Positions 9,980 through 61,795 of a DNA stretch of 64,000 bases are shown one piece after another. The DNA is from Candidatus Nomurabacteria bacterium. Its GTDB lineage: Bacteria; Patescibacteriota; Dojkabacteria; SC72; JAHDCA01. The notes below the pieces were generated by a model, which worked only from the letters and a program-made list of their open reading frames with translations, did not search any database and was not told the origin of the DNA. The translations under genes were made by a program, and so were the position numbers. How positions within the stretch are numbered: the stretch's first letter is position 1; every line of letters starts with the position of its first letter. The stretch lies in assembly GCA_020632395.1 (NCBI GenBank), contig JACKFQ010000001.1:226009-290008 (forward strand), written 5' to 3'.

Positions 9980-9984
9980 TTTGT

Positions 9985-10135
9985 TTCAGTTTTGGAACTA
10001 GAATACCTACTTAGTTCCAAGTTGGAACTAATTTTCTTTCTTAGTCCCAATTTGAGACTAAGGTTGTAACACTGGTGTTACAAAGTGCGACCCTTGTAAC
10101 AAAACGCTCTCTTTTTGTTACATATATGACTTCGT
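9985..10135. promoter_or_regulatory. cluster of palindromes (candidate operators) between the Fic and SWIM genes
   Basis: ggaacta-N10-tagttcc at ~10003-10030. Perfect 8-2-8 palindrome ttgtaacac-tg-gtgttacaa at ~10063-10082. ttgtaacaa and ttgttacat half-site repeats follow. Confidence 0.35.
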
Positions 10136-10147
10136 GAAACAAGACTG

Positions 10148-11227: not shown

Positions 11228-11232
11228 TGTTG

Positions 11233-11754: not shown

Positions 11755-11755
11755 T

Positions 11756-12896: not shown

Positions 12897-12897
12897 A

Positions 12898-12975
12898 TGG
12901 GGTGGCAGATGGGACTCGAACCCACAACCCTCGGTACCACAAACCGATGCTCTAACCAATTGAGCTACAGCCACC
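12898..12975 (-). tRNA. tRNA-His (anticodon GTG) with encoded G-1 and CCA
   Basis: Cloverleaf folded by hand; anticodon loop TTGTGGT; T-loop GGTTCGAGTCC; extra 5' G pairs with discriminator C. Confidence 0.8.
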
Positions 12976-33818: not shown

Positions 33819-34730
33819 ATGGGAGATATTATGAAAACCTACACTCCAATTACACGAATATTCATCGACGAGTTACCAGTAGTTATCAAACGTGAGGATC
33901 TTAATGAAACTGGATCACAAAAAGATCGTGGAGTACCAGTGCAGATCGATCATCACATCAAAGATGGCAAAACCCGATTTGTTATATCAAGTTCAGGAAA
34001 TTCTGCTATCAGTGCGATCAACAGATTAATAAATACAGAGTATCACCTCACAGTCTTCTTGAGTAAAAATATCAGCACATCTAAACTACTGCGGATCTCC
34101 TTAATATTAAAGAAAAACATTACACAAGAAGATACTACTATCCAAAATATCGAACTGAAGTTCACTGAAAGACCCGTATCTGATGCATTCAAATATGCTA
34201 ATTCATCTGAGAGCGTTTTACTTAGAGGCTCTATAGATCCTTATGCAACGATAGGGTACCAAGCGATCACACATGAACTAGCAGAACAAAGTCCCGGATC
34301 AACAGATATATTCATACCCACTTCTAGTGGTACAACTTTGGTAGGAATATTCAACGGTTATGAAGACTTAAAGGATAAAGACCCAAATATTTTGATCCCG
34401 AGATTTCATGTGTGCCAAACAACAGCCGTCAACACGATTGCCAGAGATTTTGATACCTCATTTCAACCTACCAAAAATTCAATTGCAGAAAGCATTGTCG
34501 ATAGGGTGGCTAAACGATATCACCAAGTCAGTGATATAATAAAGAGTACTACAGGTTCTGGATGGGTCTTAACAGATGCTGAGATCAGGAAAGCTGTGCA
34601 ACTCCAAAAAGATCTTGGTTTAGAATTATCTAATGAATCAGCACTAGCACTTGCAGGGATGTTAAGAGCAATGCGAAGCTCAAAATATAATATGGATCAA
34701 CCAATAGTATTATCAACAGGAGTGAAATGA
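33819..34730 (+). CDS. fold-type II PLP-dependent enzyme (Trp-synthase beta / threonine synthase / cysteine synthase superfamily)
   Basis: KREDLNETGSQKDRG matches the PLP-lysine motif (..NPTGSFKDRG) of this superfamily. The stop overlaps the next gene's start (ATGA). Confidence 0.65.
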   Translation: MGDIMKTYTPITRIFIDELPVVIKREDLNETGSQKDRGVPVQIDHHIKDGKTRFVISSSGNSAISAINRLINTEYHLTVFLSKNISTSKLLRISLILKKNITQEDTTIQNIELKFTERPVSDAFKYANSSESVLLRGSIDPYATIGYQAITHELAEQSPGSTDIFIPTSSGTTLVGIFNGYEDLKDKDPNILIPRFHVCQTTAVNTIARDFDTSFQPTKNSIAESIVDRVAKRYHQVSDIIKSTTGSGWVLTDAEIRKAVQLQKDLGLELSNESALALAGMLRAMRSSKYNMDQPIVLSTGVK

Positions 34731-36145
34731 GTTTATACGACCCAATCTTTTATATAACTAATGATAGCGAACGAGCCATCGGACTCGAGGAGATTGTAGA
34801 TCTTCATATACTGGCCATAGACGACAGTTGGCTTGCACGTCAGATACACAACAAGACCCACAAGGTATTTATCCTTGAGCGAGAGATAGGTATTCTTAAT
34901 CCTATTTTCCGAAATTCCAATAAACTACTTCAAGAACCACTCACACAAGAGTATATTGATCATCATTCGCAAGATATCCGTCAAGGAATGGTGTTTAAGA
35001 TCGCTCCTAATATTGAAAGAACTGCACAAGCGCTAGGTATACAACTCCTCAATACAACCTCACAACAGAATCAACGTTTCGAAAACAAGATCCCACAACT
35101 AGAATTCCTCAAAGAATTAGACAATATCCCACTACCCAAAAGTGAGATCTATCTCTTGGGAGATACTGATCACCAGAAGCTAATTTCTGAATTCTCGGAT
35201 CCTTACGTCATACAGTTCGATCGAGGACATACAGGGACAGGAACATTATTTATCAGATCTGAAGATGAGCTTGAAGACCTGAAGAGTGCGTTCCCCAAGC
35301 GACCAGTAAGGATATCCCAATACATAGAAGGCGAAGCCTGGACACTCAATGCTGTTTCTACAAGATGGGGGACTCATTACGGTGGTTTATCGTATCAGAT
35401 AACAGGGGTCGAGCCACTCACAAGAGTCTCAGGGGCAACTGTCGGAAACGATTGGAGTAGAGCGCATTCTCTTCCAGATAATACGATCTCCCAGATTGCA
35501 ATGATCACTAAAAAGGTTGGTGACGGGTTATTTGAAGAAGGGTTTAGAGGTTTATTCGGATTGGACCTGATAGTTGACGACAAAGGGAAAGCATTTCTGA
35601 TAGAGATAAATGCACGACAGCCAGCCTCTACAGGGATGCACACCAAACTTATGTTAAAAAACCAACAGATACCGTTGCAACTATTACATATCGCTGAATT
35701 CTTAGGTTTGACCGATAGTGAGCTGATTCAGTATATGACCGATCGATCAAGACCAGCTCATAGCCTAACCAAACTACAAGACCAGCTAAGCGAGCAGGAC
35801 CGATCACTTGGTAGGGATATAAATGCGTCACAGTGTATATTGAGAAATAGTGCAAGTGGAAATATTACTATAGCAGGAGATCTAGGCTCAGGGATCTACG
35901 ATCGAACAGATAGAGATTTATCTGAACAGGCAATTGATGATCGATATAGTATCGATCACTTGGATGAAGACGAGTTCCTCCTCATAACTGCTACTGAAGG
36001 AAGGATCGTCACACCTGGTACCGAGTACGCTCGGATCCAAACGTATGGAAGTGTCCTAGATAACAGTGGTAAACTCTTACCAGTACTAGTAGATATTATC
36101 AATAAGTTAAAAGGGAGTACCCATGAGGAGGCTACAACTACCTGA
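34727..36145 (+). CDS. ATP-grasp superfamily ligase
   Basis: Central ATP-grasp core with LFGLDLIVDDKGKAFLIEINARQPAS (E-x-N metal site) and a glycine-rich loop FDRGHTGTGTLF. Overlaps both neighbours. Confidence 0.6.
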   Translation: MSLYDPIFYITNDSERAIGLEEIVDLHILAIDDSWLARQIHNKTHKVFILEREIGILNPIFRNSNKLLQEPLTQEYIDHHSQDIRQGMVFKIAPNIERTAQALGIQLLNTTSQQNQRFENKIPQLEFLKELDNIPLPKSEIYLLGDTDHQKLISEFSDPYVIQFDRGHTGTGTLFIRSEDELEDLKSAFPKRPVRISQYIEGEAWTLNAVSTRWGTHYGGLSYQITGVEPLTRVSGATVGNDWSRAHSLPDNTISQIAMITKKVGDGLFEEGFRGLFGLDLIVDDKGKAFLIEINARQPASTGMHTKLMLKNQQIPLQLLHIAEFLGLTDSELIQYMTDRSRPAHSLTKLQDQLSEQDRSLGRDINASQCILRNSASGNITIAGDLGSGIYDRTDRDLSEQAIDDRYSIDHLDEDEFLLITATEGRIVTPGTEYARIQTYGSVLDNSGKLLPVLVDIINKLKGSTHEEATTT

Positions 36146-36902
36146 ACCGGCTTGGAAAGTCGTACAAGGTTATATGAAGCTAAAATTTAACGGTACAGTT
36201 GTTCGAACTCCTTACTATCGAAATGTCGAGAGGGTACGTGCAGAACTTCGCTCACTTATTGGTAAAGGTACTCCTGAAGAGATTGTCGAAGATGTCCTTA
36301 TCTTTTCAAAATTGAGGGGCTTCAATCTCCGTCGAGCAACACCTGACGAGATACGACGCTTCATGGAGAAAGAAGGTATCGGTATAGATTGTTCGGGATT
36401 TGTAGCACATGTGTATGACGGATGGCTTAGGGCTGTAAATAAAGGAAGTATAAGATCAAATCTTCTCTGGCCAAAACGCACTCTTTACAGAAAGGTTATA
36501 ACCATCCTAAGACCTATCGAGAACATCAGCTCAGAACTTCTCACAGGAGAATTGAATTGTACCACTATCGAGATCGAAGACACCCTCCCTGGCGATCTGA
36601 TAAGATTGAAGGGTGCTAAACAGGGTGATCATGTTGTACTGATAAGTACGGTCACACTTGAGGAAGACGGTACTCCCAGAGAGATCGATTATGTACACTC
36701 ATCACCACACTATGGTAATGATAATGGTGTAAAGAAAGGAAAGATCAGGATCACAAATCCCGATAGGGGATTAGAGTATCAGGAATGGTTGGAAAAAGAC
36801 CCCAATGGCCGCTGCATCACAAAAGACGGTTATCTAAGGGAACTTAGCGATAATAGGTTGGTTCGGCCTAATTTTATGGAAAAGATCAAATGGGGACAGT
36901 AA
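36123..36902 (+). CDS. cytoplasmic NlpC/P60 (CHAP-like papain-fold) cysteine amidase/peptidase
   Basis: GIDCSGFVAHVY (catalytic Cys), downstream GDHVVLI and HSSPH (His pair); no signal peptide. Confidence 0.55.
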   Translation: MRRLQLPEPAWKVVQGYMKLKFNGTVVRTPYYRNVERVRAELRSLIGKGTPEEIVEDVLIFSKLRGFNLRRATPDEIRRFMEKEGIGIDCSGFVAHVYDGWLRAVNKGSIRSNLLWPKRTLYRKVITILRPIENISSELLTGELNCTTIEIEDTLPGDLIRLKGAKQGDHVVLISTVTLEEDGTPREIDYVHSSPHYGNDNGVKKGKIRITNPDRGLEYQEWLEKDPNGRCITKDGYLRELSDNRLVRPNFMEKIKWGQ

Positions 36903-37981
36903 CCGGATGGATCTTACTATCTTTCTTGCTCACATTCGGATTAGCACCGATCATCATACATATCCTCTATCGATACAGGATCGTACGAAAAACTGATACT
37001 GATTTCTCGGCGATAGTAGGAGAACGATATCTTAAAGCAGGTACACCGATCATGGGAGGTCTGATGATGATCATCAGCATCTTGTTACTTACTATCATAT
37101 TCAATTGGCATGGGAGCACAGTAGTACCGATAGTTGTACTAATAATTTCAGCATTGTTAGGTGGATTTGATGATGTGATGAATATCTACGGTAGGAAGAG
37201 AGTTATCAGAACTGTAGATAAGCAGATCAAATTAGCGAAAGTACACAAACATCTTTCCAAAAGGATCTTTTATTGGATCACACTGCCTTGGGCTGCATAT
37301 AAGAATATCTGGTTTGCACTAGGGTCATACCCAGGAAATGGTATACACGCTGGTGAAAAGATCCTTATACAATTATTTGTGGGTTGCTTAGTTGCTTGGT
37401 GGATATTTTTCAGATTAGGATGGAGCGTTCTTTGGATCCCTGTCATTGGAGAATTTGATATAGGCATACTAATGCCTTTGGTAGTAATCGGTCTCGTGAT
37501 GATCATGACAAATGCAGTCAATATCTCCGATGGTATGGATGGCTTAGCCAGTGGAATGTTGGTACCTAGTTTTATAGCCTATCTCCTCATCGCAATACAG
37601 CAGGAACAGCACGAGATAGCGATCCTTTGCGCAATTACGATAGGAGCCTTACTCGCCTATATATACTTCAACATCAAACCAGCACGAGTTGAGATGGGCG
37701 ATGTCGGAACTCTAGCTTTAGGAGCTTTGCTTGCAACGGTAGCTCTTGCCCTTAGACGAGAATTCTTACTTCCGATAATTGGTGGGCTGTTCTTCATAGA
37801 GATCGGCTCCTCATTATTGCAGGGAGTGTATCGCAAGATCGTCGGAAGAAGGCTTTTAAAGATGGCACCACTGCACTTACACTTGCAGGTACGAGGATGG
37901 TCAGAAGAAAAGACTGTGATGAGATTTTGGTTGTTCTCAGTGATATTTGCGATTTTAGGTCTCTGGATCTCACAATTCTAA
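36890..37981 (+). CDS. MraY/WecA-family polyprenyl-phosphate sugar-1-phosphate transferase (paralog; degenerate HHH motif)
   Basis: 10-11 TM protein; NAVNISDGMDGLASG (DDxxD-type motif), C-terminal MAPLHLHLQVRGW. Confidence 0.7.
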   Translation: MGTVTGWILLSFLLTFGLAPIIIHILYRYRIVRKTDTDFSAIVGERYLKAGTPIMGGLMMIISILLLTIIFNWHGSTVVPIVVLIISALLGGFDDVMNIYGRKRVIRTVDKQIKLAKVHKHLSKRIFYWITLPWAAYKNIWFALGSYPGNGIHAGEKILIQLFVGCLVAWWIFFRLGWSVLWIPVIGEFDIGILMPLVVIGLVMIMTNAVNISDGMDGLASGMLVPSFIAYLLIAIQQEQHEIAILCAITIGALLAYIYFNIKPARVEMGDVGTLALGALLATVALALRREFLLPIIGGLFFIEIGSSLLQGVYRKIVGRRLLKMAPLHLHLQVRGWSEEKTVMRFWLFSVIFAILGLWISQF

Positions 37982-38061: not shown

Positions 38062-39081
38062 TCAATAACCGTTCTTCTTGCACTCCAGATACTCATACGC
38101 TCGAGTTGCATAAGCAAGTGGACTCAGAATTAGATCATGTGCGTGGATCATTTTTGTTTCTATCCCACCAAAACCTCTTTTAAATAGTGAGAGGCCATAC
38201 CAAGGATGATCAACATCCTCAGGATCTACAACTCCCCAGAGATTGAGCTCTTTGAATCCGAGTGCTCGTGAATTTCTTATAGCCTCCCAGATCAATAGGT
38301 ATGTTGATGGGATATTGCGAAATTCTGTCAATGATCCACTATGATGATAAAAAGATTTTTCATTATAATGTGTAAAGATAGCGGCTGATATATATCGATC
38401 TTGGTACTTGCTTAAATACATTGTTGCCATATCGTTCTTTGCAAATACTTCGAATTCCCTGCGCACATATTCTTTCTTGTATGCTATCCATTTATTTCTC
38501 TCTACCGCATCAAGAAAGATCTTCCAAAACTCCTCAAATTTGCTCATATCTGTAAATTTTTCAACAGTTATCCCCATCTTCTGAGCCTTCTTTATATAGT
38601 ATCTAGTGTTCTTCCTCATCTGCTTCAATATTTCGTCTTCCGATGGAAACAGATCTATTGAAAGAGTATGCTCAGCATCAGTCTCATGCGAAGTAGAACG
38701 CACTAGTCCTAATTTTTTCATTCGTCCAAGCTCGCGTGAGGAATTTTCAACCAAAGGACTCATTCTTACAAACCATGATTTCTCCTTCTTCCCAATTTCT
38801 CGCAACGATCGCATCAAGAAATTAACCAGATCATCATCCTCCCAATCACATAAAGGAGAATGTCGTAGATGAAGATACTTACCTCGGACAGCCTTGATCA
38901 TGGATATAGGTAACCCCGCCACTAATACACCATCCCGATAGATCCCATAATATCTAAAATCGTTACCGATCTCATTCTGGAACTCTCCCCACAACCAAGA
39001 ATCAATAAAGGTAACCTTAGGGAAGCCTCGGGCGAATTTATCCCATTTCTTTGAGTCTGTGATTGTTCTTAATTCATACAT
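38062..39081 (-). CDS. FemAB-family (aminoacyl-tRNA-dependent peptidoglycan interpeptide) transferase-like protein
   Basis: Size and tandem GNAT-like pattern of FemX/FemAB; W/F/Y-rich C-terminal region. Confidence 0.5.
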   Translation of the reverse strand: MYELRTITDSKKWDKFARGFPKVTFIDSWLWGEFQNEIGNDFRYYGIYRDGVLVAGLPISMIKAVRGKYLHLRHSPLCDWEDDDLVNFLMRSLREIGKKEKSWFVRMSPLVENSSRELGRMKKLGLVRSTSHETDAEHTLSIDLFPSEDEILKQMRKNTRYYIKKAQKMGITVEKFTDMSKFEEFWKIFLDAVERNKWIAYKKEYVRREFEVFAKNDMATMYLSKYQDRYISAAIFTHYNEKSFYHHSGSLTEFRNIPSTYLLIWEAIRNSRALGFKELNLWGVVDPEDVDHPWYGLSLFKRGFGGIETKMIHAHDLILSPLAYATRAYEYLECKKNGY

Positions 39082-40312
39082 GCGAATTATAGTAATTAGT
39101 TAATTCTAAAATGATCCTATCGGCATCTGAGGGTGAGATATTAGCATGCAAGGGTAGGTTGATAATATCCCTACACAGATCCTCAGCATTCGGACACGAC
39201 CCTTCATCATACATCGTGATATATGGAGAGAAAGTTGCAGGAGCTACCGGATTCCAATACCAATCCCCAAGAAGAATATTTTGTTCTTTCATATACTTCA
39301 TCAAACCCGTTCTATCTTTGACACGAAGAGCCATTCGCAAAGGTACCACATCTGGATTTTCTTCAACAATAGTGATATTTCGGTCTTCACCCAATGCTTT
39401 GATGAACTTCTGAAACAGCAAAGCTCGATATGACTGTATCTCTGAGATATCTTCTAGTTGACCCATTGCGATCTCGGCTAGAGCCCCTGGAAGTTTTGTT
39501 GGTATATGCTTCGGTCTCTCACCCTGTTTCTCTTCTTTAGTCGTTGCCCTCGAGATCAACCCACTTTTTGTATAGATCAGATGAAGAACTTTTCCAAAGC
39601 CAGAAACATACGTTGATTTTATAGTTCTCCATAGTATCGGGAAAAGTATCCTCTTGAACACCCAGCTAGAACCAGGGTAGTGAAGTGAAAGATATCTTGT
39701 ATTTAGTGTTGATGCAACATCCAGTTCAGGATCAAATACCATCACACCCCCGTCAACACCAGAAACTACTTTATCTCTTCCGAGGCTATATATGATCACA
39801 TCAGTTTCTGGTAATACCTCACTATTTGATGTGGGTATAAAATGGGTCGAATCTAGGATAAGTAGTATGCCTCTCTGCTTGCAGATCTCCCTCACTTTCT
39901 CATAGCTAGGTACACTCCCAAGAGTCACCTGGACTACAACAGCTACTGTTTGTGGGTCGATCCCAGCGATGATAGTATCCTCAGCTGGGACCAATTTACC
40001 TTTTTGGATATCTATATATCTGGGTGTCAATCCTGCCCATACGGCAGGTAATGACGCTGCAGCACAAGTAAATCCTTGATATACGACATTTCCATTTGGT
40101 TTACTTATGCTACTGAGTAGTTCGAATAAAGCTGATCTAGCATGACTATATGTCAAAACTGTCTTTCCAGGATGTAATTTCAAGAAGTGATCATTGACAC
40201 GAGATATCGATCCAGTATCAAACCATCGTCTAGGGGATAGTAGTAGACGATAGTTCAAGTTTAGATCTTTCGGACGGGTATTTGGAGAATATGAGCTATA
40301 TATCAATTTCAT
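39074..40312 (-). CDS. DegT/DnrJ/EryC1/StrS-family PLP aminotransferase-like protein
   Basis: Fold pattern of sugar aminotransferases (..VIIYSLGRDKVVSGVDGGVMVF..) with a Lys in the expected Schiff-base region. Confidence 0.45.
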   Translation of the reverse strand: MKLIYSSYSPNTRPKDLNLNYRLLLSPRRWFDTGSISRVNDHFLKLHPGKTVLTYSHARSALFELLSSISKPNGNVVYQGFTCAAASLPAVWAGLTPRYIDIQKGKLVPAEDTIIAGIDPQTVAVVVQVTLGSVPSYEKVREICKQRGILLILDSTHFIPTSNSEVLPETDVIIYSLGRDKVVSGVDGGVMVFDPELDVASTLNTRYLSLHYPGSSWVFKRILFPILWRTIKSTYVSGFGKVLHLIYTKSGLISRATTKEEKQGERPKHIPTKLPGALAEIAMGQLEDISEIQSYRALLFQKFIKALGEDRNITIVEENPDVVPLRMALRVKDRTGLMKYMKEQNILLGDWYWNPVAPATFSPYITMYDEGSCPNAEDLCRDIINLPLHANISPSDADRIILELTNYYNSHV

Positions 40313-41733
40313 TTTCTACAATGATGAGATAAATCCTGCATAACTTTGGGTGAGAAACGACCTTCCAACAAGAAAACATCTTTTTCTGTACCACTACAGA
40401 TCTTTTCGTGTACACTTTTTTCATCTACAAGTTCTGAGATCTCATCCCCTGCGATTTTGTGAAGTACAGGATCAGTTGTGATCAGATGAATATTTAATTC
40501 TCGTAGAACACTTACTATACGTTCATACGATGTTTCCAAAGTATCACCTAATTCTAACAATCCCCTTGTAATTGCGGTTCTATTCGTCTGGGAGAATTCA
40601 GAGATATAATGCAAGGCCGCAATAAATCCTTCCACGCTAGAATTATAGCTGTCATCTATCAGGATCGAACCATTATCCAATTCTCTACGAGAAAGCTTCT
40701 GTGATATTGGCTTTAGATGTTTTAATGCTTCTACTATCTGCTTCTCATCCAAGCCCAGATCGATCGCACATGCTAAAGCACCTGTTAGATTAAGAATACT
40801 ATGGTTTCCGGGAAGAACTGTGTTCAAGGATAGATTTAGATTCTTGTATGCAAAGTGGAATGAACCGTTTCCTGTCGGTTGTGAATAAGCATCTGCCTTG
40901 GGATTTGTGATCGAATAAGTGATAACAGTACAGTGAGCAGCTTTGGTCATGACCTCGTAACCGTCGCAATCCATGTTCAAATACAGTTTTCCATCCTTTG
41001 GTAGAGCAGAAGGGAGTTCAGATTTAGCTTTCAATAATGCCTCACGAGATCCAAAAATATCTACATGCTGATTTCCGAGACCAGTGACAAATCCTATCCT
41101 TGGTGGAGTGATGTTTGCTGATCGCGTGATCGTTCCAACGGTATATGCTGCCATCTCACTTATAAAATACTGTGTGTCTGGACGGATCTCGTTGAGAAAT
41201 GACATAGCTACACCAACTTCCGAGTTGTAATTCTTTTTGGTCGATGCCACCTTATATTTTTCTGACAGTAGCCGGTGAAGGATGACCTTCATAGAGCTTT
41301 TCCCATATGAACCAGTAACTCCTATCACAACGGCGTCAGAATCTTTTGCCATCTGCTCGGCTCGTTTGATGATCCTACCTCTTTTATATAGTGCAAGAGG
41401 CTCTGTCAGCAACACACCCAAAAACACCACAACCTTAGATGCCAGAAAACCTAAACCCCAAAATAGTGTATAAGAAAGATCTATCTCCTGAAATCTCAAA
41501 GCCGTCCACCCAAAATAAGCAACCATGATCAAAAAAACAAATCCTGTTATCAGAATATTACGCAAAGATCTTGCAGGCATTTTGAGCGGGATCCAAAACC
41601 CTCGATTATCTTTAATTCCGCTCAGTATTCTAGGTAAAAAATACTCCTTGATCTGAAATTGATAGAGAGTGGGTAGAGAAAAGAATGTAGACACGATCAA
41701 ACCTATTAGTGAGAAGAAGATTGTCATGATCAA
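40309..41733 (-). CDS. murF: Mur ligase, MurF-like, with N-terminal multi-TM membrane anchor
   Basis: VIGVTGSYGKSS P-loop and Mur ligase middle/C domains, preceded by ~110 aa containing 3-4 TM helices. Confidence 0.7.
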   Translation of the reverse strand: MIMTIFFSLIGLIVSTFFSLPTLYQFQIKEYFLPRILSGIKDNRGFWIPLKMPARSLRNILITGFVFLIMVAYFGWTALRFQEIDLSYTLFWGLGFLASKVVVFLGVLLTEPLALYKRGRIIKRAEQMAKDSDAVVIGVTGSYGKSSMKVILHRLLSEKYKVASTKKNYNSEVGVAMSFLNEIRPDTQYFISEMAAYTVGTITRSANITPPRIGFVTGLGNQHVDIFGSREALLKAKSELPSALPKDGKLYLNMDCDGYEVMTKAAHCTVITYSITNPKADAYSQPTGNGSFHFAYKNLNLSLNTVLPGNHSILNLTGALACAIDLGLDEKQIVEALKHLKPISQKLSRRELDNGSILIDDSYNSSVEGFIAALHYISEFSQTNRTAITRGLLELGDTLETSYERIVSVLRELNIHLITTDPVLHKIAGDEISELVDEKSVHEKICSGTEKDVFLLEGRFSPKVMQDLSHHCRK

Positions 41734-42485
41734 CTTTCCTTCAAAAAGTGAATTATATCGTTTGCCACCTCAACTGGTTCTGCTATCGGGAGATTATGTG
41801 TCATATTCTCATAAATTTTCATCTTGGAGTCTGTGATCTTCTCATTTAGATATTTCCCTTCTGCAATAGGAGTTGATAGATCATGCCTCCCCCACAATAT
41901 CAATGTCGGCAAGTGTACAGAACGTAAGATCGGCCTGAGATCCTTCTTAAGGATCTTTCTGTAGATCGATTCTAGATGGAGATATTTCAATGAATCCGAT
42001 CGTCTGTGAAAAAGTTTGTAATATAGTCTTCTCACAGGGAGGAGATAATCTCTCAGGTGATCATAGAAAGGCACGAACTTCGTGAGCTTTCCCAATCCTG
42101 AAACTTTCGGTTCCCGATAATAAGAAGCTGCTATAAGCACAAGCTTCTCAAATAGAGCAGGGTGGTTGGCAGCCAAATATATACCGATCCCCCCTCCAAA
42201 AGAGTGACCTATATAAACAAGTTTATTCAGCTTCAACTGCCTAATGAACTGCAATACCGTTTCAGGATACTGTTCTGCTTCCCAATTCATGGGGGGGTTC
42301 TGACTTTCTCCAAACCCAGGGAGATCTAATAAATAGACTTTCCGTGTTTTTGCTAATTCTCTGGCTAAAGCATCCAGACTTTGTTTGTTTCCACCCCATC
42401 CATGTACAAGTATGGTCGGGTCTCCACTCCCATAGGTCACATACGAGATCTTCAGTTCGTTTACTTTAATATTCATTGATATCAA
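41730..42485 (-). CDS. alpha/beta-hydrolase fold protein
   Basis: GHSFGG nucleophile elbow (GxSxG), LVHGWGG oxyanion region, C-terminal His. Confidence 0.7.
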   Translation of the reverse strand: MISMNIKVNELKISYVTYGSGDPTILVHGWGGNKQSLDALARELAKTRKVYLLDLPGFGESQNPPMNWEAEQYPETVLQFIRQLKLNKLVYIGHSFGGGIGIYLAANHPALFEKLVLIAASYYREPKVSGLGKLTKFVPFYDHLRDYLLPVRRLYYKLFHRRSDSLKYLHLESIYRKILKKDLRPILRSVHLPTLILWGRHDLSTPIAEGKYLNEKITDSKMKIYENMTHNLPIAEPVEVANDIIHFLKES

Positions 42486-42579
42486 TTCTATCAGATAATT
42501 TGTACTGCTTCATATACGATATGATTTGCATAAGTGCATATAGCCTTATATCATATATCAATACAATAATACGTTAAAT

Positions 42580-43875
42580 TTGAACTATAACAACGTGAAC
42601 AGAATCAAACAGATGATCCCTCAGAACATTAAGAATTATTACCATAAGGTCATGATAAGGCTTTACAACATCTACTATGATGACCCATCATCCAAACTCG
42701 CAGTGATCGGTGTTACCGGAACTGATGGTAAAACGACGACTTGTACATTGATCTACGAGATCCTAAAAGGAGCTGGATACAAAGTAGGTTTGATCACAAC
42801 CATCAGCGCTAGGATCGGTGAAGAATCAATACCCACCGGCTTTCATGTGACCACTCCAGATCCCCAAGTACTTCTCAACCTCATGAAAAGGATGATAGAT
42901 GCTGGAATGGAGTATGTAGTCCTAGAAACCACATCACATGGACTTGATCAAAATCGTGTTAGTACGATCAAGTTTCATGCAGGGATCTTCACTAACGTAA
43001 CACATGAACATCTAGACTATCACAAAACATATGAGGCTTACCTCAATACGAAAGCCACACTTATTCATCTGATCAAACCGGGTGGATTCGTGGTGATCAA
43101 TCTGGATGACAAATCAAGCGAGGTCTTATGTAAGAAAGCTTCTGATCATAAATTAAAAACCTATACATACGGCTTCACTGAAAAAGCAGATCTGTTCGCA
43201 ACTGATTATGAAGATACCACCACAACTACAAAATTTAATGTTCATAATGGGGATCAAACGTTTCCTGTCGAAATGCATCTACCCGGAGAATACAATGTCT
43301 ACAATGCTCTTGGTGCTATACAGGTTGGTCTTGAACTCGGTATATCCCAAGATGTTGTTGCAAGAGCACTGTCAGATGTTAAGACTCTAGAGGGGAGATG
43401 GGAAGTATTGCAAAAGGAGCCATACAAAGTGGTTGTAGACTTCGCACATACACCAAATGCCTTAGAAAAGATGTTAGAGTACGCACGACAGGATAATCCC
43501 ACAGGAAGATTAATTGTTGTTTTTGGTACTGCAGGTAAGCGTGATATTGAGAAGAGACCTCAGATGGGAAGGATCGCAGGGAATCTAGCCGATCTCGTGA
43601 TCCTAACCGCAGAGGACCCAAGAGGAGAAAATATTATCAATATAAACAGACAGATCGCTGTTGGTCTTGCAGAAGTAGGTAAGATAGAGGAGAAAGATTA
43701 TTTCAGCATAACTGATAGACGTAAAGCAATTGCTCGAGCTATGAAACTTGCTAAACCCGGTGACACAGTAGTGATCACAGGAAAAGGACACGAGAAGAGT
43801 ATGAATATCGATGGTGTTAACGAGATCCCTTGGAGTGACCAGATGGTTGTAAAAGAATTAATTACAAACGGATGA
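42580..43875 (+). CDS. murE: Mur ligase, MurE-like (UDP-MurNAc-L-Ala-D-Glu:diamino acid ligase)
   Basis: VIGVTGTDGKTTT P-loop. C-terminal domain has EDPRGE in place of the DAP-specific DNPR motif. Confidence 0.7.
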   Translation: MNYNNVNRIKQMIPQNIKNYYHKVMIRLYNIYYDDPSSKLAVIGVTGTDGKTTTCTLIYEILKGAGYKVGLITTISARIGEESIPTGFHVTTPDPQVLLNLMKRMIDAGMEYVVLETTSHGLDQNRVSTIKFHAGIFTNVTHEHLDYHKTYEAYLNTKATLIHLIKPGGFVVINLDDKSSEVLCKKASDHKLKTYTYGFTEKADLFATDYEDTTTTTKFNVHNGDQTFPVEMHLPGEYNVYNALGAIQVGLELGISQDVVARALSDVKTLEGRWEVLQKEPYKVVVDFAHTPNALEKMLEYARQDNPTGRLIVVFGTAGKRDIEKRPQMGRIAGNLADLVILTAEDPRGENIININRQIAVGLAEVGKIEEKDYFSITDRRKAIARAMKLAKPGDTVVITGKGHEKSMNIDGVNEIPWSDQMVVKELITNG

Positions 43876-43881
43876 GAACAA

Positions 43882-44640
43882 ATGAAGTACATATTTTCAG
43901 AATTCACCGCTACTTATAGCCAATACGAATTTCCTTATCAGATCTATGTATTTAGAGAGGAAAGTGACAAATTAGAGGATATATATTCAAAAGGAGCACT
44001 TCCTACGCGTATTGACGCCAGGTTGTTCTATGTAGCCCGAGGTGTACGAGTAGATCTTACAAAATTCTCCCCAAATAGTGAAAATCGCAGAATTGCCAGA
44101 AAGACATCCAACTTGCAACTCAAGATTGTTCCTCTCGATATGTTCGATTATCAACCACATATCGGTAAGTTAGCAAAAGACTTTTACGATACAAAATTCG
44201 GAAAAGGTACTCTCTCCGCTCAAAAGGTAAAATGGCTCTTTCGATCTGGTGCATACTCCCATGTGATAGTCTATAAGGATATCCAACAGAACAGTATCAT
44301 TGGGTACTGTATAGTAAATCTCACGGATAACATAATGCATTATGCATATCCTTTCTATCGATTAGAACTTATCAATACAAATACAGGCATAGGTATGATG
44401 ACAAGTGCCATTATGAATGCTTCAGGAAGTGATCTTGATCTTGTATATCTTGGGACATGCTATGACCAGAGAGCTAAATATAAACTACAGTTCAAAGGTA
44501 TAGAATACTTTAATGGGTGGGAGTGGTCTGAGGATATCGATGCTTTAAAGTCATTACTAAATTCCAAACATGATTCTCATCTATTATCGACACCAGGTAA
44601 ACGTACCAATTTAATTGAACATCTGACAGGAACGCCATGA
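43882..44640 (+). CDS. Bpt/ATE_C-like (arginyl/leucyl-tRNA-protein transferase C-domain, GNAT-fold) protein
   Basis: ...SIIGYCIVNLTDNIMHYAYPFY...VYLGTCYDQRAKYKLQFKGIEYFNGWEW resembles the ATE_C signature YLGYwI...M.YK..F.P.E.l..W. Confidence 0.4.
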   Translation: MKYIFSEFTATYSQYEFPYQIYVFREESDKLEDIYSKGALPTRIDARLFYVARGVRVDLTKFSPNSENRRIARKTSNLQLKIVPLDMFDYQPHIGKLAKDFYDTKFGKGTLSAQKVKWLFRSGAYSHVIVYKDIQQNSIIGYCIVNLTDNIMHYAYPFYRLELINTNTGIGMMTSAIMNASGSDLDLVYLGTCYDQRAKYKLQFKGIEYFNGWEWSEDIDALKSLLNSKHDSHLLSTPGKRTNLIEHLTGTP

Positions 44641-46061
44641 AAAAAGTACATTTTATCGGCATTGTAGCTTCTGCTATAGCTCCTATCGCAATTATGATGA
44701 AGGAGAAAGGCTGGGATGTGACTGGTTCAGACGAAGGTGTCTTCGAACCGGCTCTATCTCTACTCAATAATGCAGGAGTGAAGTGGTATGAAGGATACTC
44801 AGCAGAAAGGGTACATGGATGCGACCTGGTGATAATTGGAGGAGGACCATTGATGAAAGACCCTAATAATCCAGAATATCTTGAAGCCCTCCGATTAGGC
44901 TTGCCTACGAAAGGGTACTACTACGCCCTACAGGAATACGTTATCAAAGACAGATCGATTGTCATCGCTGGAAGCTACGGTAAAACAACAACATCTGGAA
45001 TGGTCAATTGGATACTTGAATGTGCTGGGATGAACCCTTCTTTCATGATAGGTGGCAAACCAGGAAATTTCACAACAGGAGTACGCAGTACAGATTCTGA
45101 TATCTCATGTTTAGAGGGTGACGAGTTTGTCTCGGTATTCAACATGGATATGGAACCAAGATTTATCTATTACAAACCCAAATATACCTTGGTTAGTGCA
45201 TCAAAGTGGGATCATATGAATGTGTACCCTACGGAAAAGTCATACACAGATGCATTTCTCAAGTTGGTCAAGCTGACTAAGCAGAACGATGGAGTACTAT
45301 ATCTTTGTGGCTCAGGTACGAATAACGATCTGCTAGAGAGATCTGCAAGTGTGATAGACCTTAGAGTTGTGACATATATGATAGACGGAAAAGAAGCTTT
45401 ACTCGAACAAGACCCTGAATACAGGGCAAAAATATCAGATGTTAGTATTAAAGGAACTACGTTTGAGGTATATCATAAGGCATTATCACTTGGGGAATTC
45501 ACAACAACACAGATTGGCACACACAATGTCGAGAACTCTCTTGGGGCAATAACAGTTTGTCATGATCTAGGGGTACCACTAGAAAAGATCAAAGAGGGTA
45601 TCAAGAGTTTTAAGGGAATTAAGCGAAGATTGGAGATTATTGGTAATAATTCAAAAGGTGCATTAGTAATAGATGATTTTGCTCACTCAGCTATGAAAGC
45701 TGAGGCGTCGCTTAGTGCATTACGTCAAAGTTATCCTGATTCGAAGATAGTCACAGTATACTTCCCTAGGCAATCTGCTAGAGAGAACAGAGAAGAACTA
45801 GATTTTTATCCTGGTGCTTTTGATGCAGCCGATCTTGTGATCATCCCACGCATACAAGTGAAACGTTCAACACCTAAAGAGCAACGGATATATGGGAAGG
45901 ACATTATCGAGGCGATCGCTCATACGCAACCAAATGTCGAGTACATTCCAGTAGAGGAAGATCTTGTTAGTAGATTGGTCAACGAATCCTCCGATAACAC
46001 AGTAATTGTATTCATGTCGGCTAGTGGGTGGGGTAGGGTGATTGATGAGGTGTTGAGGTAA
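44637..46061 (+). CDS. murC: Mur ligase, MurC/Mpl-like (UDP-MurNAc:L-Ala ligase)
   Basis: N-terminal HFIGIVASAIAPIAIMMKEKGWDVTGSD Rossmann region and GSYGKTTTSGMV P-loop. Confidence 0.7.
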   Translation: MKKVHFIGIVASAIAPIAIMMKEKGWDVTGSDEGVFEPALSLLNNAGVKWYEGYSAERVHGCDLVIIGGGPLMKDPNNPEYLEALRLGLPTKGYYYALQEYVIKDRSIVIAGSYGKTTTSGMVNWILECAGMNPSFMIGGKPGNFTTGVRSTDSDISCLEGDEFVSVFNMDMEPRFIYYKPKYTLVSASKWDHMNVYPTEKSYTDAFLKLVKLTKQNDGVLYLCGSGTNNDLLERSASVIDLRVVTYMIDGKEALLEQDPEYRAKISDVSIKGTTFEVYHKALSLGEFTTTQIGTHNVENSLGAITVCHDLGVPLEKIKEGIKSFKGIKRRLEIIGNNSKGALVIDDFAHSAMKAEASLSALRQSYPDSKIVTVYFPRQSARENREELDFYPGAFDAADLVIIPRIQVKRSTPKEQRIYGKDIIEAIAHTQPNVEYIPVEEDLVSRLVNESSDNTVIVFMSASGWGRVIDEVLR

Positions 46062-46275
46062 TACTCCATATTAGTAGAAACACAATACACCCTTTCCATA
46101 CTATAAGTCTAATGGTATAATGAATAATTATGCAACACAGATTCGAGCAACAAAATAAAAGAAAACTCTCACACACCGAAACATGGGTGAAACCTTGTTA
46201 TATGATCGGTGTCATCAATTACCCTATCTTGGAGAGCTTTTCAGTAATGTAATTTTTATAAATGTTGAAACAGAA

Positions 46276-46299
46276 GGCCTCCAAACGGAGGCCTTTTTC
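46276..46299 (+). terminator. rho-independent terminator
   Basis: GGCCTCC-AAAC-GGAGGCC stem-loop followed by TTTTTC. Confidence 0.6.
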
Positions 46300-47596: not shown

Positions 47597-47598
47597 AT

Positions 47599-47650
47599 AA
47601 ACACCTCGGAGGTTCATTCCGGTGAGCCTCTGGGGTGTTTACTTTTTCTC
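47599..47650. terminator. bidirectional intrinsic terminator between convergent MFS gene and murB
   Basis: AAACACCTCGGAGG...CCTCTGGGGTGTTT imperfect hairpin with T-runs on both strands. Confidence 0.5.
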
Positions 47651-50562: not shown

Positions 50563-51591
50563 ATGAACGATGCTCTCATACAAACATTTCATTCACTTTT
50601 TATTGCATTTGTAATTTCTATACTTTTTGCACCTTTAATGATCCGCTACCTTTACAGATTCAACCAGGTAGCCGCACATAAAAAAACTAAGCTTGGTGGT
50701 GGTATTGAGGAAGACAACACTCTCTACCTTCGGATAATGAATGTATCTGGTAAGAATGGGATACCTAACATGGGAGGGATCATGGTCTGGGTAGTAGTTC
50801 CATTTACGATCCTCCTCACATTAGACTTGACTCCTCTTATTGTTGTATTGATCTGGTCTTTTGTTCTCTTTGGTGCATGGGGATTCCTTGATGTATTGTT
50901 CACGAATATGATCAAGAACAATCCCGACCTTAAGACTATTCAAGAACGATTTGGTGTGCGTTTATTACGCTTCTCTATAGCAGTCCTTATCAATATTGTG
51001 ATCACATATATGCTATGGAATAGTGGTGTACTCAAAGATCTATCACTAGGTATGATCTCAATATCATTCTCCCTGGTGATGGTGCCTGTACTGGCTATCC
51101 TAGGTCAATTCGCAATATATGCATCTGAACTGACCGATGGACTAGATGGATTGATGATCGGGATATTCGGGATAATCTATACAGCATTAGGATCAATGTT
51201 GCTGATCCAGGGGAAATATGAGCTTCTTCCCGTAATTGGGATCATCATTGGAGTGATACTTGTCGACCTATATTTCAATATCAACCCTGCAAGATTTTAC
51301 AACGGTGGCCCTAGCGCTATGCCTCTAGGTCTAGTTGCTTTTCTGATAGGATTAGCAACAAACAATCTAATACCGTATTTTGTTGCTTCTTCTATAACAT
51401 GGGTAATACTGGCATCTAGCATGATACAGATAATCAGTATGAGATTCTTTAAGCGGAGAGTTTTCAAAATGGCACCGTTACATCACCATTTCCAAACCAT
51501 CGGTTGGCCAGAGACAAAGGTCACTATGCGATTCTGGTTGGTAACGATGGTTTTTTCTGTTATCGGGATATATCTATCGATAGTACTATAA
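50563..51591 (+). CDS. mraY: phospho-N-acetylmuramoyl-pentapeptide transferase MraY
   Basis: ASELTDGLDGLMIG and intact C-terminal MAPLHHHFQTIGW motif. Confidence 0.8.
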   Translation: MNDALIQTFHSLFIAFVISILFAPLMIRYLYRFNQVAAHKKTKLGGGIEEDNTLYLRIMNVSGKNGIPNMGGIMVWVVVPFTILLTLDLTPLIVVLIWSFVLFGAWGFLDVLFTNMIKNNPDLKTIQERFGVRLLRFSIAVLINIVITYMLWNSGVLKDLSLGMISISFSLVMVPVLAILGQFAIYASELTDGLDGLMIGIFGIIYTALGSMLLIQGKYELLPVIGIIIGVILVDLYFNINPARFYNGGPSAMPLGLVAFLIGLATNNLIPYFVASSITWVILASSMIQIISMRFFKRRVFKMAPLHHHFQTIGWPETKVTMRFWLVTMVFSVIGIYLSIVL

Positions 51592-55424: not shown

Positions 55425-56140
55425 GGGTATTTACTCAGTTTGATGTATTGAAAAGTACGACCGATTTCTTCCCACTTCTTGTAGTAGTGCGTTTCGATCA
55501 GATTGAGCAGTTTGGGACTATAAACTCCCTTTTCAATTTTACAATCTACCCTGTACGTAGCAAATTTGCTTACCTCCGCATCTACAAAACCATAGTACTC
55601 ATCCCAATCAGTGACAAAGAGTATTTCGCCTCCTTCTTGTAAAACCGACCAGATAGAATACAACCATCTACTCGTGATCGGTCTTCGTTTATGATGTCTT
55701 TTCTTGTGCCACGGGTCGGGAAACAAAATATAGATCTTGGACACAGTGTTTTTGTCGAACAATTTTGATATAAACGGATACGCATCTGCTTTATAGACCA
55801 ATGCGTTAGACTGATCTTTGATCTTCTTCTCAGTCCTACGAGTATATTCACTCGATATCTCAAAACCAATAGATACAGCATCTTCATTGACAGTGGCAAG
55901 ATGATGTAAAAGCTCACCATGACCAGAACCAATCTCGACCAATATCCTTTTGGTATCAAAATACCTATCCCACCTTACTGGATAGGGTAGACGATCTACA
56001 CCAAACGAGCCTACTATCCGAGGATCTATCTGCCAAAATATCGATCTTACTTTTTTGATGAAGATAGAGATACTTTTAGTAAGAATCTTGTATGATAGAT
56101 AACTATACTTCTTTATTTGATGTTGCATTACCTGTAACAT
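55421..56140 (-). CDS. trmB: tRNA (guanine46-N7)-methyltransferase TrmB
   Basis: EIGSGHGELL SAM motif and FPDPWHKKRHHKRR. Confidence 0.8.
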   Translation of the reverse strand: MLQVMQHQIKKYSYLSYKILTKSISIFIKKVRSIFWQIDPRIVGSFGVDRLPYPVRWDRYFDTKRILVEIGSGHGELLHHLATVNEDAVSIGFEISSEYTRRTEKKIKDQSNALVYKADAYPFISKLFDKNTVSKIYILFPDPWHKKRHHKRRPITSRWLYSIWSVLQEGGEILFVTDWDEYYGFVDAEVSKFATYRVDCKIEKGVYSPKLLNLIETHYYKKWEEIGRTFQYIKLSKYP

Positions 56141-57387
56141 TCTACAAATTGAAAACTCGCAATCTTACCACAATTATATTATTGATCCTCGCACTACTCA
56201 CTGTCGTGGGCATATTTTACTATGATTACACTATCAGAACCAATTCATCAACGGAAATTAAAGAAGACGACATAGAAAGTATCAAGCAACTATATACCAA
56301 CGACCAAAGAGAAGAACAACCCATACAATCACCAGACGAGAGTGATCAAGCATCTGATCGATCACCCGATAAATTACCCCAAGTAGAGCCGAAACCAGAT
56401 ACAAACATATCACAACCTGAGCCAATACAGAGCGGAGATCAACTCAAGTATACTGCCTGGATACCTTCATGGGGTCACACTGCCGGAGTTGCATCATTAC
56501 AGAAACAGCCAGAGATATTCGGATCCATATCTCCAGTTTGGTATTCTCCGACACCTGACGGCTCACTTGATATCAAATTCCCCAGTGGGTACAAAACATT
56601 CCTACAGTTCTGTAAAGACAATGATATACGCGTCATACCCTCCATCGCTATGTTCGATGCGGAAGTATTAACCCAGATCCTGAATAGCAATACAAACTTC
56701 TCAAGACATATCAACCAGATCATCGACCAGGTCGCTATTAATGATTTTGACGGGATAGACATCGATTATGAGATGATCTATCTATCCGACAAAGATCGAT
56801 TTCTCACTTTTGTAGACGAGCTTAGTACTCGCTTGCAAAAAGACAACAAGATCCTATCAATAACTATCCTGGCACAATGGGGAGACAATGTGATATACCC
56901 TTCATTGAAAGAAACACGTGCAGTTCAAGAACTCGAACTGATAGGCAAGCTTGCTGATGAGGTTAGGATCATGACATACGATTACACACCGAACAGTTCA
57001 CGCGAACCAGGACCTATTGCCCCGATCGATTGGATGGAAAATGTACTGAAATACACCGTGACAAAGATCCCGTCAGAAAAGATATGGCTTGGCACACACC
57101 TATATGGATACGAATGGATCTCAACAGGTGGGGTAAGTGCGACAACATTTTCTGATCTATCACAATTACGATCGATAGAGGACTTCCAAGTCACCCATAA
57201 CTATACATACAATGAGGGTGTTGCAAATTATACTTGTGCGACAGACCTCAAATGTACATTATTCTTTCAAGACCAGAAAGGTATCGAAGCCAGAAGATCA
57301 CTAGCAGAGAAGTATCAAATTGCTGGATTGGCATTTTGGAGATTGGGAGATGAAGCGGATCTCTTGACACCACTACTTTCCGATTGA
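56092..57387 (+). CDS. membrane-anchored glycoside hydrolase family 18 (chitinase-like / YaaH-type) protein
   Basis: N-terminal TM; FDGIDIDYE catalytic DxxDxDxE motif. Confidence 0.6.
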   Translation: MIDNYTSLFDVALPVTFYKLKTRNLTTIILLILALLTVVGIFYYDYTIRTNSSTEIKEDDIESIKQLYTNDQREEQPIQSPDESDQASDRSPDKLPQVEPKPDTNISQPEPIQSGDQLKYTAWIPSWGHTAGVASLQKQPEIFGSISPVWYSPTPDGSLDIKFPSGYKTFLQFCKDNDIRVIPSIAMFDAEVLTQILNSNTNFSRHINQIIDQVAINDFDGIDIDYEMIYLSDKDRFLTFVDELSTRLQKDNKILSITILAQWGDNVIYPSLKETRAVQELELIGKLADEVRIMTYDYTPNSSREPGPIAPIDWMENVLKYTVTKIPSEKIWLGTHLYGYEWISTGGVSATTFSDLSQLRSIEDFQVTHNYTYNEGVANYTCATDLKCTLFFQDQKGIEARRSLAEKYQIAGLAFWRLGDEADLLTPLLSD

Positions 57388-60967: not shown

Positions 60968-61795
60968 TTAATAATTAAAGTATACATCAGCAGGAGTTCT
61001 CTTCTCAAGTGAGCTATGTCTCCTCTGATGGTTGTAGAACAAAAAGTACTTCTCTAGTCGATCTCGAGCTTCGTTTCCGTCAGCATAATCATACAGGTAC
61101 ACTTCCTCATATTTCACAGTTCTCCACAACCTCTCGATGAAGATATTGTCAAATGCCCGACCCCTCCCATCCATGCTGATCTTTACACTGTAAATTTTCA
61201 GAAGATCCGTGTACTCCTGACTGGTATACTGGCTTCCCTGATCTGTATTCGAAATCTGTGGCCGGCCTTGGTTTAAAGCCTCCTGTAGAACACTGACACA
61301 ACCTGACTTATGCATTGTATTTGTCAATTTCCAGCTGATTACATATCTTGAATACCAATCCATTTCGGCTATCAGATACAAGAATCCATGTCGCATTCTG
61401 ATGTACGTAATGTCACTGCACCAGACCTGATTTGGTTTCGTTATCTCAAGATCTTTGAGCAAGTACGGATATTTCTGGTCAACCTCATTGAATTTGCTGA
61501 GATTCTTTTTGGGCACTACTGCCGATATGCCCAACAGATTCATCAGTCGTAGAACCTTCTTGTGATTCACATCGTCTCCTGTGGTATTAAGTTCGTCCGT
61601 AATTGGTCTATACCCGTAAAAGGGTCTTTTTGTGTAGATCTCATCGATTCGATTAAGTAGGTATTGGTCATATTCACTGACTTCTACTGGTTTGTAGTAG
61701 TAAGTACTTTTGTTCAACTGTAAAAGAGCTATTTGATCCTTTTTCGTCAGTACACTATTTTTTTCTACAAGTCGTCGTTTCTCCTCATTCGTCAA
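60968..61795 (-). CDS. IS3-family transposase OrfB (DDE integrase core, rve domain)
   Basis: WCSDITYI...D...HSDQGSQYTS...E catalytic DDE spacing typical of IS3. Confidence 0.85.
   Translation of the reverse strand: MTNEEKRRLVEKNSVLTKKDQIALLQLNKSTYYYKPVEVSEYDQYLLNRIDEIYTKRPFYGYRPITDELNTTGDDVNHKKVLRLMNLLGISAVVPKKNLSKFNEVDQKYPYLLKDLEITKPNQVWCSDITYIRMRHGFLYLIAEMDWYSRYVISWKLTNTMHKSGCVSVLQEALNQGRPQISNTDQGSQYTSQEYTDLLKIYSVKISMDGRGRAFDNIFIERLWRTVKYEEVYLYDYADGNEARDRLEKYFLFYNHQRRHSSLEKRTPADVYFNY

Follow-up and report, generated by a model that had tools for sequence, protein, structure and literature searches.

A permuted peptidoglycan precursor cluster in Patescibacteria, with a MurC-linked ATE/Bpt-like transferase and forms of MurE and MurF lacking domain 1

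Why should three Mur ligase genes of a bacterium be separated from one another by genes resembling those for a Fem-type transferase, a sugar aminotransferase, a hydrolase and an aminoacyl-tRNA transferase of the kind associated with protein turnover? The question is raised by positions 38062-46061 of a 64-kb stretch of the Candidatus Nomurabacteria assembly GCA_020632395.1 (contig JACKFQ010000001.1; this whole stretch is referred to as the window, and all coordinates are positions in it). An initial annotation had placed murF, murE and murC outside the usual order of the division and cell wall (dcw) cluster and interleaved with FemAB-family, DegT-like, hydrolase and Bpt/ATE_C-like genes, and all seven open reading frames (ORFs) are indeed present at the positions first assigned to them, in two divergent groups, four on the minus strand and three on the plus strand. 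The answer to which we give slightly better than an even chance is that they belong to a rearranged precursor super-cluster that makes a stem peptide of lysine type, branched in a tRNA-dependent manner (A3-like). Its parts come from known superfamilies and tRNA-dependent branching is an already known principle. The host genome belongs to the Patescibacteria (candidate phyla radiation, CPR), the nearest relatives of the window's proteins being in records assigned by label to Candidatus Dojkabacteria or to other Patescibacteria/CPR groups, with the closest labelled Dojkabacteria; G+C content is about 40% across the whole window.

The argument turns on the middle gene of the plus-strand group (43882..44640, +), whose product is a protein of aminoacyl-tRNA-transferase fold, termed ATE/Bpt-like here, with a 20.8-bit match to Pfam ATE_C. 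An AlphaFold 2 (AF2) model built from 28 sequences has a predicted local distance difference test (pLDDT) score of 90.8 and a GNAT-like fold. Among the PDB matches listed by Foldseek for this model, human and yeast ATE1 come first (human ATE1, 8tzv: E 5e-9, TM-score 0.63), followed by Sba18/Sbb17, the alanyl- and lysyl-phosphatidylglycerol synthases (A-PGS/MprF), FemX and leucyl/phenylalanyl-tRNA-protein transferase (L/F-transferase), all of them aminoacyl-tRNA-dependent transferases. Homologues number 377 at E<=0.001, the named ones being almost all from Patescibacteria and many relatives carrying PF04377, and a search of 1.84 billion cluster representatives gave 840 matches at E<=0.001, 130 of them at E<=1e-30.

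From species-representative genomes, 80 related loci were fetched with the ATE_C-like query (individual loci are given labels of the form L0xx). In 58 of the 68 with enough flanking sequence a MurC gene follows on the same strand, not more than 3.5 kb downstream and at a median gap of 48 nucleotides (nt), and MraY is upstream in 54 of 72. In three the two genes are one: single uninterrupted ORFs of 680-713 amino acids (aa) encode ATE_C::MurC (L062:5620-7761, L072:9950-11992 and L086:386-2443), and in that from L072 Pfam recognizes ATE_C and all three Mur ligase domains. Since the three fusions are just 55-59% identical to one another, the fused state has been maintained through divergence. Natural chimeras of Mur enzymes are known (MurE-MurF, MurG-MurC, MurC-Ddl, MurB-MurC; PMC10214165) and ATE_C::MurC is a fusion of the same kind, the difference being that the partner is a protein of aminoacyl-tRNA-transferase fold; no report of a chimera between a Mur enzyme and such a protein was found in the literature searched. 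Linkage and fusion together are thus strong evidence for placing the ATE/Bpt-like protein in the Mur pathway and not in protein turnover, and its genomic context makes a wall precursor, not a protein, the likely acceptor.

An ordinary N-degron transferase, whose place among mur genes has no functional meaning, is nevertheless what the closest named families would suggest, these being the bacterial arginyl/leucyl transferases (Bpt) and ATE1; ATE1 enzymes provide the best structural matches, there is weak sequence similarity to ATE_C and arginyltransferase models, and a ClpB gene is 10 kb away. In contrast to Bpt and ATE1, the window protein is below the family cut-offs (far below in the case of the Bpt equivalogs, at 40.6 against 205-267 bits), is encoded between mraY/murE and murC, and shows no N-terminal cysteine among the invariant positions of its alignment. 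With same-strand linkage to MurC and MraY at the frequencies and spacing given, and fusion to MurC maintained in three diverged genomes, a degron function seems very improbable. Occupation of the usual murD slot, between mraY and murC, made replacement of MurD another candidate; it was rejected both because MurD-like genes are beside the module in eight loci and because extension of a free carboxylate is beyond an aminoacyl-tRNA transferase. (In those eight, L093:13353-14732(-) and seven other module loci from one sublineage, the MurD-like ligase is arranged tail-to-tail with the pyridoxal-5'-phosphate (PLP) enzyme of the module.) A separate observation is that a distant ATE_C-like member from the representative search, P0477 (809 aa), is joined to PPDK_N and PEP-utilizer domains, a fusion of another kind.

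A second protein with the same type of fold is encoded by the last gene of the minus-strand operon (38062..39081, -), a FemX-like aminoacyl-tRNA-dependent transferase of the FemAB family (Pfam FemAB 117 bits against a cut-off of 24). Its closest PDB entry is Staphylococcus aureus FemX (6snr, 61 bits), followed by FemA and Weissella viridescens FemX, and at 339 aa its length is near that of the short W. viridescens enzyme (335 aa), whereas S. aureus FemX has 420 aa. Lys-type peptidoglycan is where Fem-type transferases are typically found; W. viridescens FemX acts on UDP-N-acetylmuramic acid (UDP-MurNAc)-pentapeptide, the product of MurF, and S. aureus FemX/A/B on lipid II. The window protein is a member of this family, with which the ATE/Bpt-like protein shares its fold, and the position of its gene after that for MurF fits the MurF product as acceptor. 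It differs in being far under the cut-off of the equivalog for UDP-MurNAc-pentapeptide-lysine N6-alanyltransferase (NF047883; 54 against 500 bits), and in having DegT-like and alpha/beta hydrolase (abH) operon partners, which are undescribed in the literature searched and, to our knowledge, not a feature of Fem systems.

What side chain might such transferases find on the stem peptide? MurE is encoded at 42580..43875 (+) and passes the curated cut-offs of NF001126 (415 against 373 bits) and TIGR01085 (414 against 257 bits). The initial annotation had pointed to EDPR in place of the DNPR of enzymes adding diaminopimelate (DAP), and this is borne out at residues 345-348 (window 43612-43623). As an oddity of one genome the motif does not stand: it is in 113 of the 120 best MurE homologues, among them 12 longer ones (>460 aa), several with an N-terminal Mur ligase domain, and so is a subfamily signature rather than something peculiar to the window genome. 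The distal carboxylate of DAP is bound, in enzymes that add it, by the Asn and Arg of DNPR; S. aureus has DNPA (PMC3829189). The motif here is neither DNPR of meso-DAP type, Asn being replaced by Asp with Arg kept, nor the S. aureus-type L-Lys motif D(D/N)P(N/A), which is without Arg. The nearest motif is DDPR of Thermotoga maritima MurE, an enzyme that incorporates both L- and D-lysine in vivo and can also use DAP in vitro (PMC9434261). That enzyme is also the closest in the PDB (261 bits, DDPRGE aligned with EDPRGE); it is alike in having Asp for Asn at the second position with Arg kept, and different in that the window MurE has Glu as first residue of the motif and is without the N-terminal ~90 residues. 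The comparison of specificity residues that had been proposed accordingly leads part of the way: from its sequence EDPR favours lysine or a similar amine-terminated residue, with DAP still possible. Together with the two enzymes of aminoacyl-tRNA-transferase fold it fits a branched, Lys-type stem peptide, and to that extent the suggestion of unusual stem-peptide chemistry holds up.

In outline, synthesis would then proceed as follows. MurA, MurB and MurC would yield UDP-MurNAc-L-Ala, to which a MurD encoded outside the window would add D-Glu; MurE would add L-Lys or another amine-terminated residue at position 3 (EDPR being comparable to Thermotoga DDPR); the ATE/Bpt-like enzyme, in much of the Patescibacteria, and here also the FemX-like one, would move amino acids from aminoacyl-tRNA onto the side-chain amine; and a membrane-tethered MurF would add D-Ala-D-Ala next to MraY.

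A number of points weigh against this account. By sequence the ATE/Bpt-like protein is below family thresholds (Pfam ATE_C, 20.8 against 25 bits; NCBIfam arginyltransferase, 40.6 against 205-267 bits). As natural fusions in the Mur pathway also join enzymes of non-successive steps (PMC10214165), ATE_C::MurC marks membership of the pathway, not the step. The Arg responsible for binding the DAP carboxylate is retained in EDPR, and the T. maritima enzyme with DDPR takes DAP in vitro (PMC9434261), so DAP may yet be the residue added. The MurC-like ligase is about equidistant from MurC (134 bits) and Psychrobacter Mpl (3hn7, 130 bits) in the PDB. Neither murD nor ddl is within the 64-kb window, from which completeness of the pathway therefore cannot be checked, and in the literature searched no description of Patescibacteria muropeptide chemistry was found. 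Finally, lysine branching leaves unexplained the loss of UDP-binding domains in MurE and MurF.

That loss, an addition to the earlier description of the locus, is clear in both enzymes. Alignments of the window MurE to those of T. maritima, Mycobacterium tuberculosis, S. aureus and Escherichia coli begin at about their residue 90, its P-loop falls at residue 44 and, 12 codons upstream of its start, the frame is closed by a stop; it follows that the N-terminal UDP-MurNAc-peptide-binding domain is missing; there is no PF01225 match and the usual three-domain architecture is not present. A longer frame or an upstream exon supplying domain 1 was considered and is ruled out by the in-frame stop and a 94-bp intergenic gap. 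The short form is usual, 109 of the 120 best homologues being of 460 aa or less. In the MurF-like ligase (40309..41733, -; Mur_ligase_M 112 bits) the corresponding UDP-substrate-binding domain 1 is replaced by ~130 helical residues with three predicted membrane helices, its P-loop being at residue 138. The three transmembrane (TM) segments are seen by hydropathy and are kept in homologues, and in an AF2 model (pLDDT 91.3) an all-helical stretch of residues 1-131 (helices 2-27, 29-41, 57-80 and 86-131) runs into the central domain. The score against TIGR01143, 200 bits, is under the cut-off of 288.6, the match covering model positions 64-363; by structure, the top ten Foldseek matches in the PDB are all MurF (E 1e-27 to 1e-22), the central and C-terminal folds being those of MurF.

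Ligases confined to central and C-terminal domains are not without counterparts: MurT/GatD, CapB, FolC and cyanophycin synthetase are likewise without a UDP-binding domain, and MurT acts on lipid II at the membrane. Identity with MurT is a different matter, as the window ligases score as MurE and MurF and reach only 17.9-20.9 bits against MurT (cut-off 800). The parallel nonetheless raises the prospect of late assembly at the membrane, with substrates recognized otherwise than through UDP, in which ligases, hydrolase, Fem and ATE proteins would be complexed with MraY and possibly act on lipid-linked intermediates as MurT/GatD does on lipid II. MurE without domain 1 and MurF with that domain exchanged for three TM helices are both lineage-wide, MurC retains its N-terminal domain, and there are two MraY paralogues; moreover, it is by the domain lost from MurE and MurF that Mur ligases bind their UDP-MurNAc-peptide substrate (PMC10214165). 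Yet membrane-anchored MurF is also found beside canonical Ddl in contigs of non-CPR type, where an ordinary pathway is to be expected, the anchor may do no more than pass product on to MraY, substrate contacts are made by the central domains of the ligases too, and lipid-linked elongation is without direct evidence. We consider assembly of this sort distinctly unlikely.

The contigs just mentioned bear also on the first gene of the minus-strand operon, which encodes an alpha/beta-fold serine hydrolase (41730..42485, -; Pfam Abhydrolase_1 92 bits) with the nucleophile motif GHSFG at residue 93. This gene is directly upstream of that for TM-anchored MurF in L092, L095 and L099 and in three glycoside-hydrolase-rich contigs of non-CPR type, where abH, MurF and canonical Ddl follow one another (L096:9235-12770, L097:4219-7816 and L098:4135-7796) and MurF, of ~525 aa, has about five N-terminal membrane helices. 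The pair abH-MurF, being found in these, crosses phyla. In the Dojkabacteria locus L016 canonical Ddl is beside abH and a more distant MurF-like gene (23% identity). Linkage of abH, MurF and Ddl supports the MurF-like ligase being a working MurF and the hydrolase its conserved partner, whatever the latter may hydrolyse.

Taking the ATE/Bpt-like and ligase results together, a broader proposal can be framed, namely that a large part of the Patescibacteria has a variant Mur pathway in which an ATE/Bpt-family stem-peptide transferase is coupled to MurC, MurE and MurF do not depend on UDP recognition, and membrane MurF works with the serine hydrolase and MraY, possibly on lipid-linked substrates. 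This is put forward tentatively, as we think it rather less likely to hold in full than to fail in some part. No description of its elements, the MurC-linked or -fused ATE/Bpt-like family, domain-1-less MurE, membrane MurF with its hydrolase, or the trio of ATP-grasp, NlpC/P60-like and PLP enzymes dealt with below, was found in the literature searched.

The third ligase, at 44637..46061 (+), is of the MurC/Mpl clade. It keeps the N-terminal domain, so that Pfam finds all three Mur ligase domains (N, M and C), and its score against TIGR01082 (244 bits, against 198 for Mpl) is under the cut-off of 335, with no clear separation between MurC and Mpl. This ambiguity is pertinent to a quite different view of the cluster, on which its business is supply, salvage or proofreading: the module would process or recycle muropeptides and D-amino acids taken from the host, or correct faulty intermediates, and the stem peptide itself could be ordinary. 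The actors would be an Mpl-like MurC, the hydrolase and the products of a cassette immediately to the left of the two operons, its PLP enzyme serving as a racemase; the initial annotation had also drawn attention to this cassette as a sign of unusual chemistry.

That cassette begins with a fold-type II PLP enzyme (33819..34730, +; Pfam PALP 102 bits), threonine-synthase-, serine-dehydratase- or racemase-like, the family profile of which matches PDB threonine synthase at 68 bits, serine dehydratase at 54, serine racemase at 51 and aspartate racemase at 48. A divergent ATP-grasp ligase follows (34727..36145, +; Pfam ATP-grasp_3 32 bits), with a family profile that gives weak C-terminal matches only, to ITPK1, propargylglycine-glutamate ligase and TTL. 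Next is an NlpC/P60-like cysteine hydrolase or transferase (36123..36902, +; Pfam NLPC_P60 19 bits, cut-off 23), in which the catalytic set Cys90 (of DCSG), His170 and His192 is invariant in 22 sequences and which, having no predicted TM segment and an N-terminus without a hydrophobic stretch, is taken to be a cytoplasmic papain-like enzyme. A MraY gene, the module-linked paralogue (36890..37981, +; TIGR00445 170 bits, and synteny), completes the set. Across the 80 loci the conserved module comprises ATP-grasp, NlpC/P60-like, MraY, ATE_C-like, MurC and PLP enzymes, often accompanied by murB, upstream and on the opposite strand; the PLP enzyme is in 55, the NlpC/P60-like protein in 47 and the ATP-grasp ligase in 43, in 40 of which it is directly upstream of the NlpC/P60-like gene. 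The cassette's association with precursor genes, in that it travels with MraY and MurC in relatives, is therefore upheld, and what gives way is any likeness of its ATP-grasp member to Ddl. Replacement of Ddl by that protein, when considered, was not supported, there being no Ddl similarity in the profile and canonical Ddl being beside MurF/abH in L016.

Plausibly the trio either adds a D-amino-acid branch, by means of a ligase and its racemase, or salvages precursors. For the former there is a precedent in Enterococcus faecium Aslfm, an ATP-grasp ligase that adds a D-aspartate branch and is paired with a racemase; the window ATP-grasp and possible PLP racemase, near precursor genes, could similarly add a D-amino-acid branch. 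The differences are that the window ATP-grasp gave no detected sequence similarity to a characterized branch ligase, that the PLP enzyme belongs to fold-type II, and that the cassette has an obligatory third member in its cytoplasmic NlpC/P60-like protein. For salvage, which would suit a parasite that makes few of its own amino acids, there are the nearly equal scores of the MurC-like ligase against MurC and Mpl, the cytoplasmic NlpC/P60-like protein with its Cys-His-His triad intact, and a PLP enzyme about as near to serine and aspartate racemases as to threonine synthase. These bacteria generally cannot make amino acids yet keep their peptidoglycan genes (PMC13293708), which is as salvage would have it. 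A gene for a family-5 oligopeptide-binding protein (21843-23525), possibly a component for uptake of peptides or muropeptides, can be counted on the same side. Salvage leaves unexplained, however, two enzymes of tRNA-transferase fold in Mur operons and the ATE_C::MurC fusion; MurA, MurB, MurE and MurF are all present, so that de novo assembly is encoded, and canonical Ddl and MurD-like genes are beside the module in relatives. As the main business of the cluster we regard it as unlikely, and a tRNA-dependently branched stem peptide is still preferred.

The gene left to account for in the minus-strand operon is that for a PLP enzyme of the DegT/DnrJ/EryC1 family (39074..40312, -; Pfam DegT_DnrJ_EryC1 93 bits against a cut-off of 19.8). 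Its closest PDB entries are TlmJ and an enzyme of sugar 4-dehydrase type, and the catalytic PLP-binding lysine is retained (Lys181, in SLGRDK), aligning with those of TlmJ and 2po3; no equivalog cut-off is reached. None of the 80 loci retrieved through the ATE_C query has the gene, and it is missing in L013, L017 and L094, which keep MurF and Fem. Its being a sporadic insertion was entertained and rejected on finding it in the same operon slot in L092, L095 and L099, which makes it a conserved member of the operon, if a dispensable one. It is, with a second MraY-family paralogue (50563..51591, +; MraY 116 bits against WecA 26 bits; 69% identity in L092), the whole basis for the attached secondary polymer that the initial annotation offered as an alternative, and which the present results neither support nor exclude. 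On that explanation the DegT-like enzyme would make an amino sugar, the second MraY would start a separate lipid-linked precursor, and the Fem and ATE proteins might aminoacylate the sugar amine. Presence of the catalytic lysine, conservation of the second MraY in L092 and the inclusion of Sba18/Sbb17, acylators of small-molecule amines, among the Foldseek matches of the ATE_C-like protein are consistent with it. Absence from the operons of any nucleoside diphosphate (NDP)-sugar dehydratase or dehydrogenase, polymerase, flippase or LCP-type ligase, the loss of the DegT-like gene from the three loci named, and the greater nearness of the second MraY to MraY than to WecA/TagO argue the other way, and glycan modification or a secondary polymer is, to our minds, improbable.

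How far can the juxtaposition of all these genes be relied upon? From the left, the order is ftsW-murG-clpB-PALP-ATPgrasp-NlpC/P60-like-mraY and then, in reverse orientation, femX-degT-murF-abH; it continues to the right with murE-ATE_C-murC-MFS (a major facilitator superfamily transporter)-murB (reverse)-murA-mraY2-mraZ-rsmH-ftsL-ftsI. Some 27 kb thus holds nearly the entire lipid II pathway, with the order permuted and genes inserted relative to the canonical dcw sequence of mraZ-rsmH-ftsL-ftsI-murE-murF-mraY-murD-ftsW-murG-murC-ddl; no gene for MurD or Ddl lies in the 64-kb window, a point that the earlier description had not recorded. (The putative ftsL, of 144 aa with one TM helix, has no Pfam match.) On the minus strand the order of transcription is hydrolase, MurF-like, DegT-like and FemAB-family, adjacent genes overlapping by 4-8 nt, and on the plus strand it is MurE, ATE/Bpt-like and MurC-like, the start of the last overlapping the stop of its predecessor by 4 nt; the two divergent operons are translationally coupled. 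In L092 (GCA_020632375.1) the same 18 genes are in the same order and orientation, with 32-69% amino-acid identity between the proteins. The order abH-MurF-DegT-FemAB recurs in three other Patescibacteria lineages, L092, L095 (a Roizmanbacteria assembly) and L099, in the latter two of which it is outside the murE-murC context, and in the complete Dojkabacteria genome L094 TM-anchored MurF is followed by two Fem paralogues. Comparison of synteny had been proposed as a check, sporadic insertions being the outcome that would have told against a connection; the recurrence of this operon, and the linkage of the ATE_C-like gene with both MraY and MurC, show the interleaved genes to be conserved Mur-pathway partners, not sporadic insertions.

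Expression of the two operons presumably depends on promoters in the 94-bp divergent region between them (42486..42579), where a scan found consensus-like sites on both strands, the region-wide count of such sites being not above shuffled expectation. The murE-ATE_C-murC operon ends at a terminator-like hairpin of 11 pairs followed by a T run (46272..46297, +), and a hairpin of 20 pairs at 47598-47641, between the convergent genes for the MFS transporter and MurB, is likely a bidirectional terminator. No riboswitch or other RNA element was found in the intergenic gaps, the Rfam matches in the window being to three tRNAs only.

Elsewhere in the window, envelope-related genes near the cluster include a CapA/PGA_cap-like one (17482-19176) and a GH18 chitinase-like one (56092-57387). 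An 828-aa ORF without a Pfam match (19196-21682) opens with a hydrophobic, signal-like segment, continues through a long, acidic middle of low complexity rich in Asp, Thr, Glu and Ser (~11% each) and ends in a Lys-rich tail; it accounts for a peak of AT skew, 0.325, at 20-22 kb. Genes of defence or mobile type occupy 2596-12974 (a DUF4143 ATPase, a GmrSD endonuclease, Fic, a SWIM-finger protein and a recombinase zinc-ribbon ORF), and as the last abuts tRNA-His (12898-12974) the segment may be an element integrated at the tRNA. An rve-family integrase (transposase of insertion sequence type) is encoded at 60968-61795 (-).

Peptidoglycan precursor synthesis is among the best studied of bacterial pathways and a major antibiotic target, and the Patescibacteria are among the largest and least understood of bacterial groups. 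If the reading preferred here is right, an arginyltransferase-like enzyme would constitute a second family of tRNA-dependent wall builders beside Fem, Mur ligases would be able to function without a UDP-binding domain, and MurF would have a conserved hydrolase partner, found outside the CPR also, with a function to be discovered. Each of these consequences is testable with recombinant proteins and commercially accessible UDP-MurNAc-peptides.

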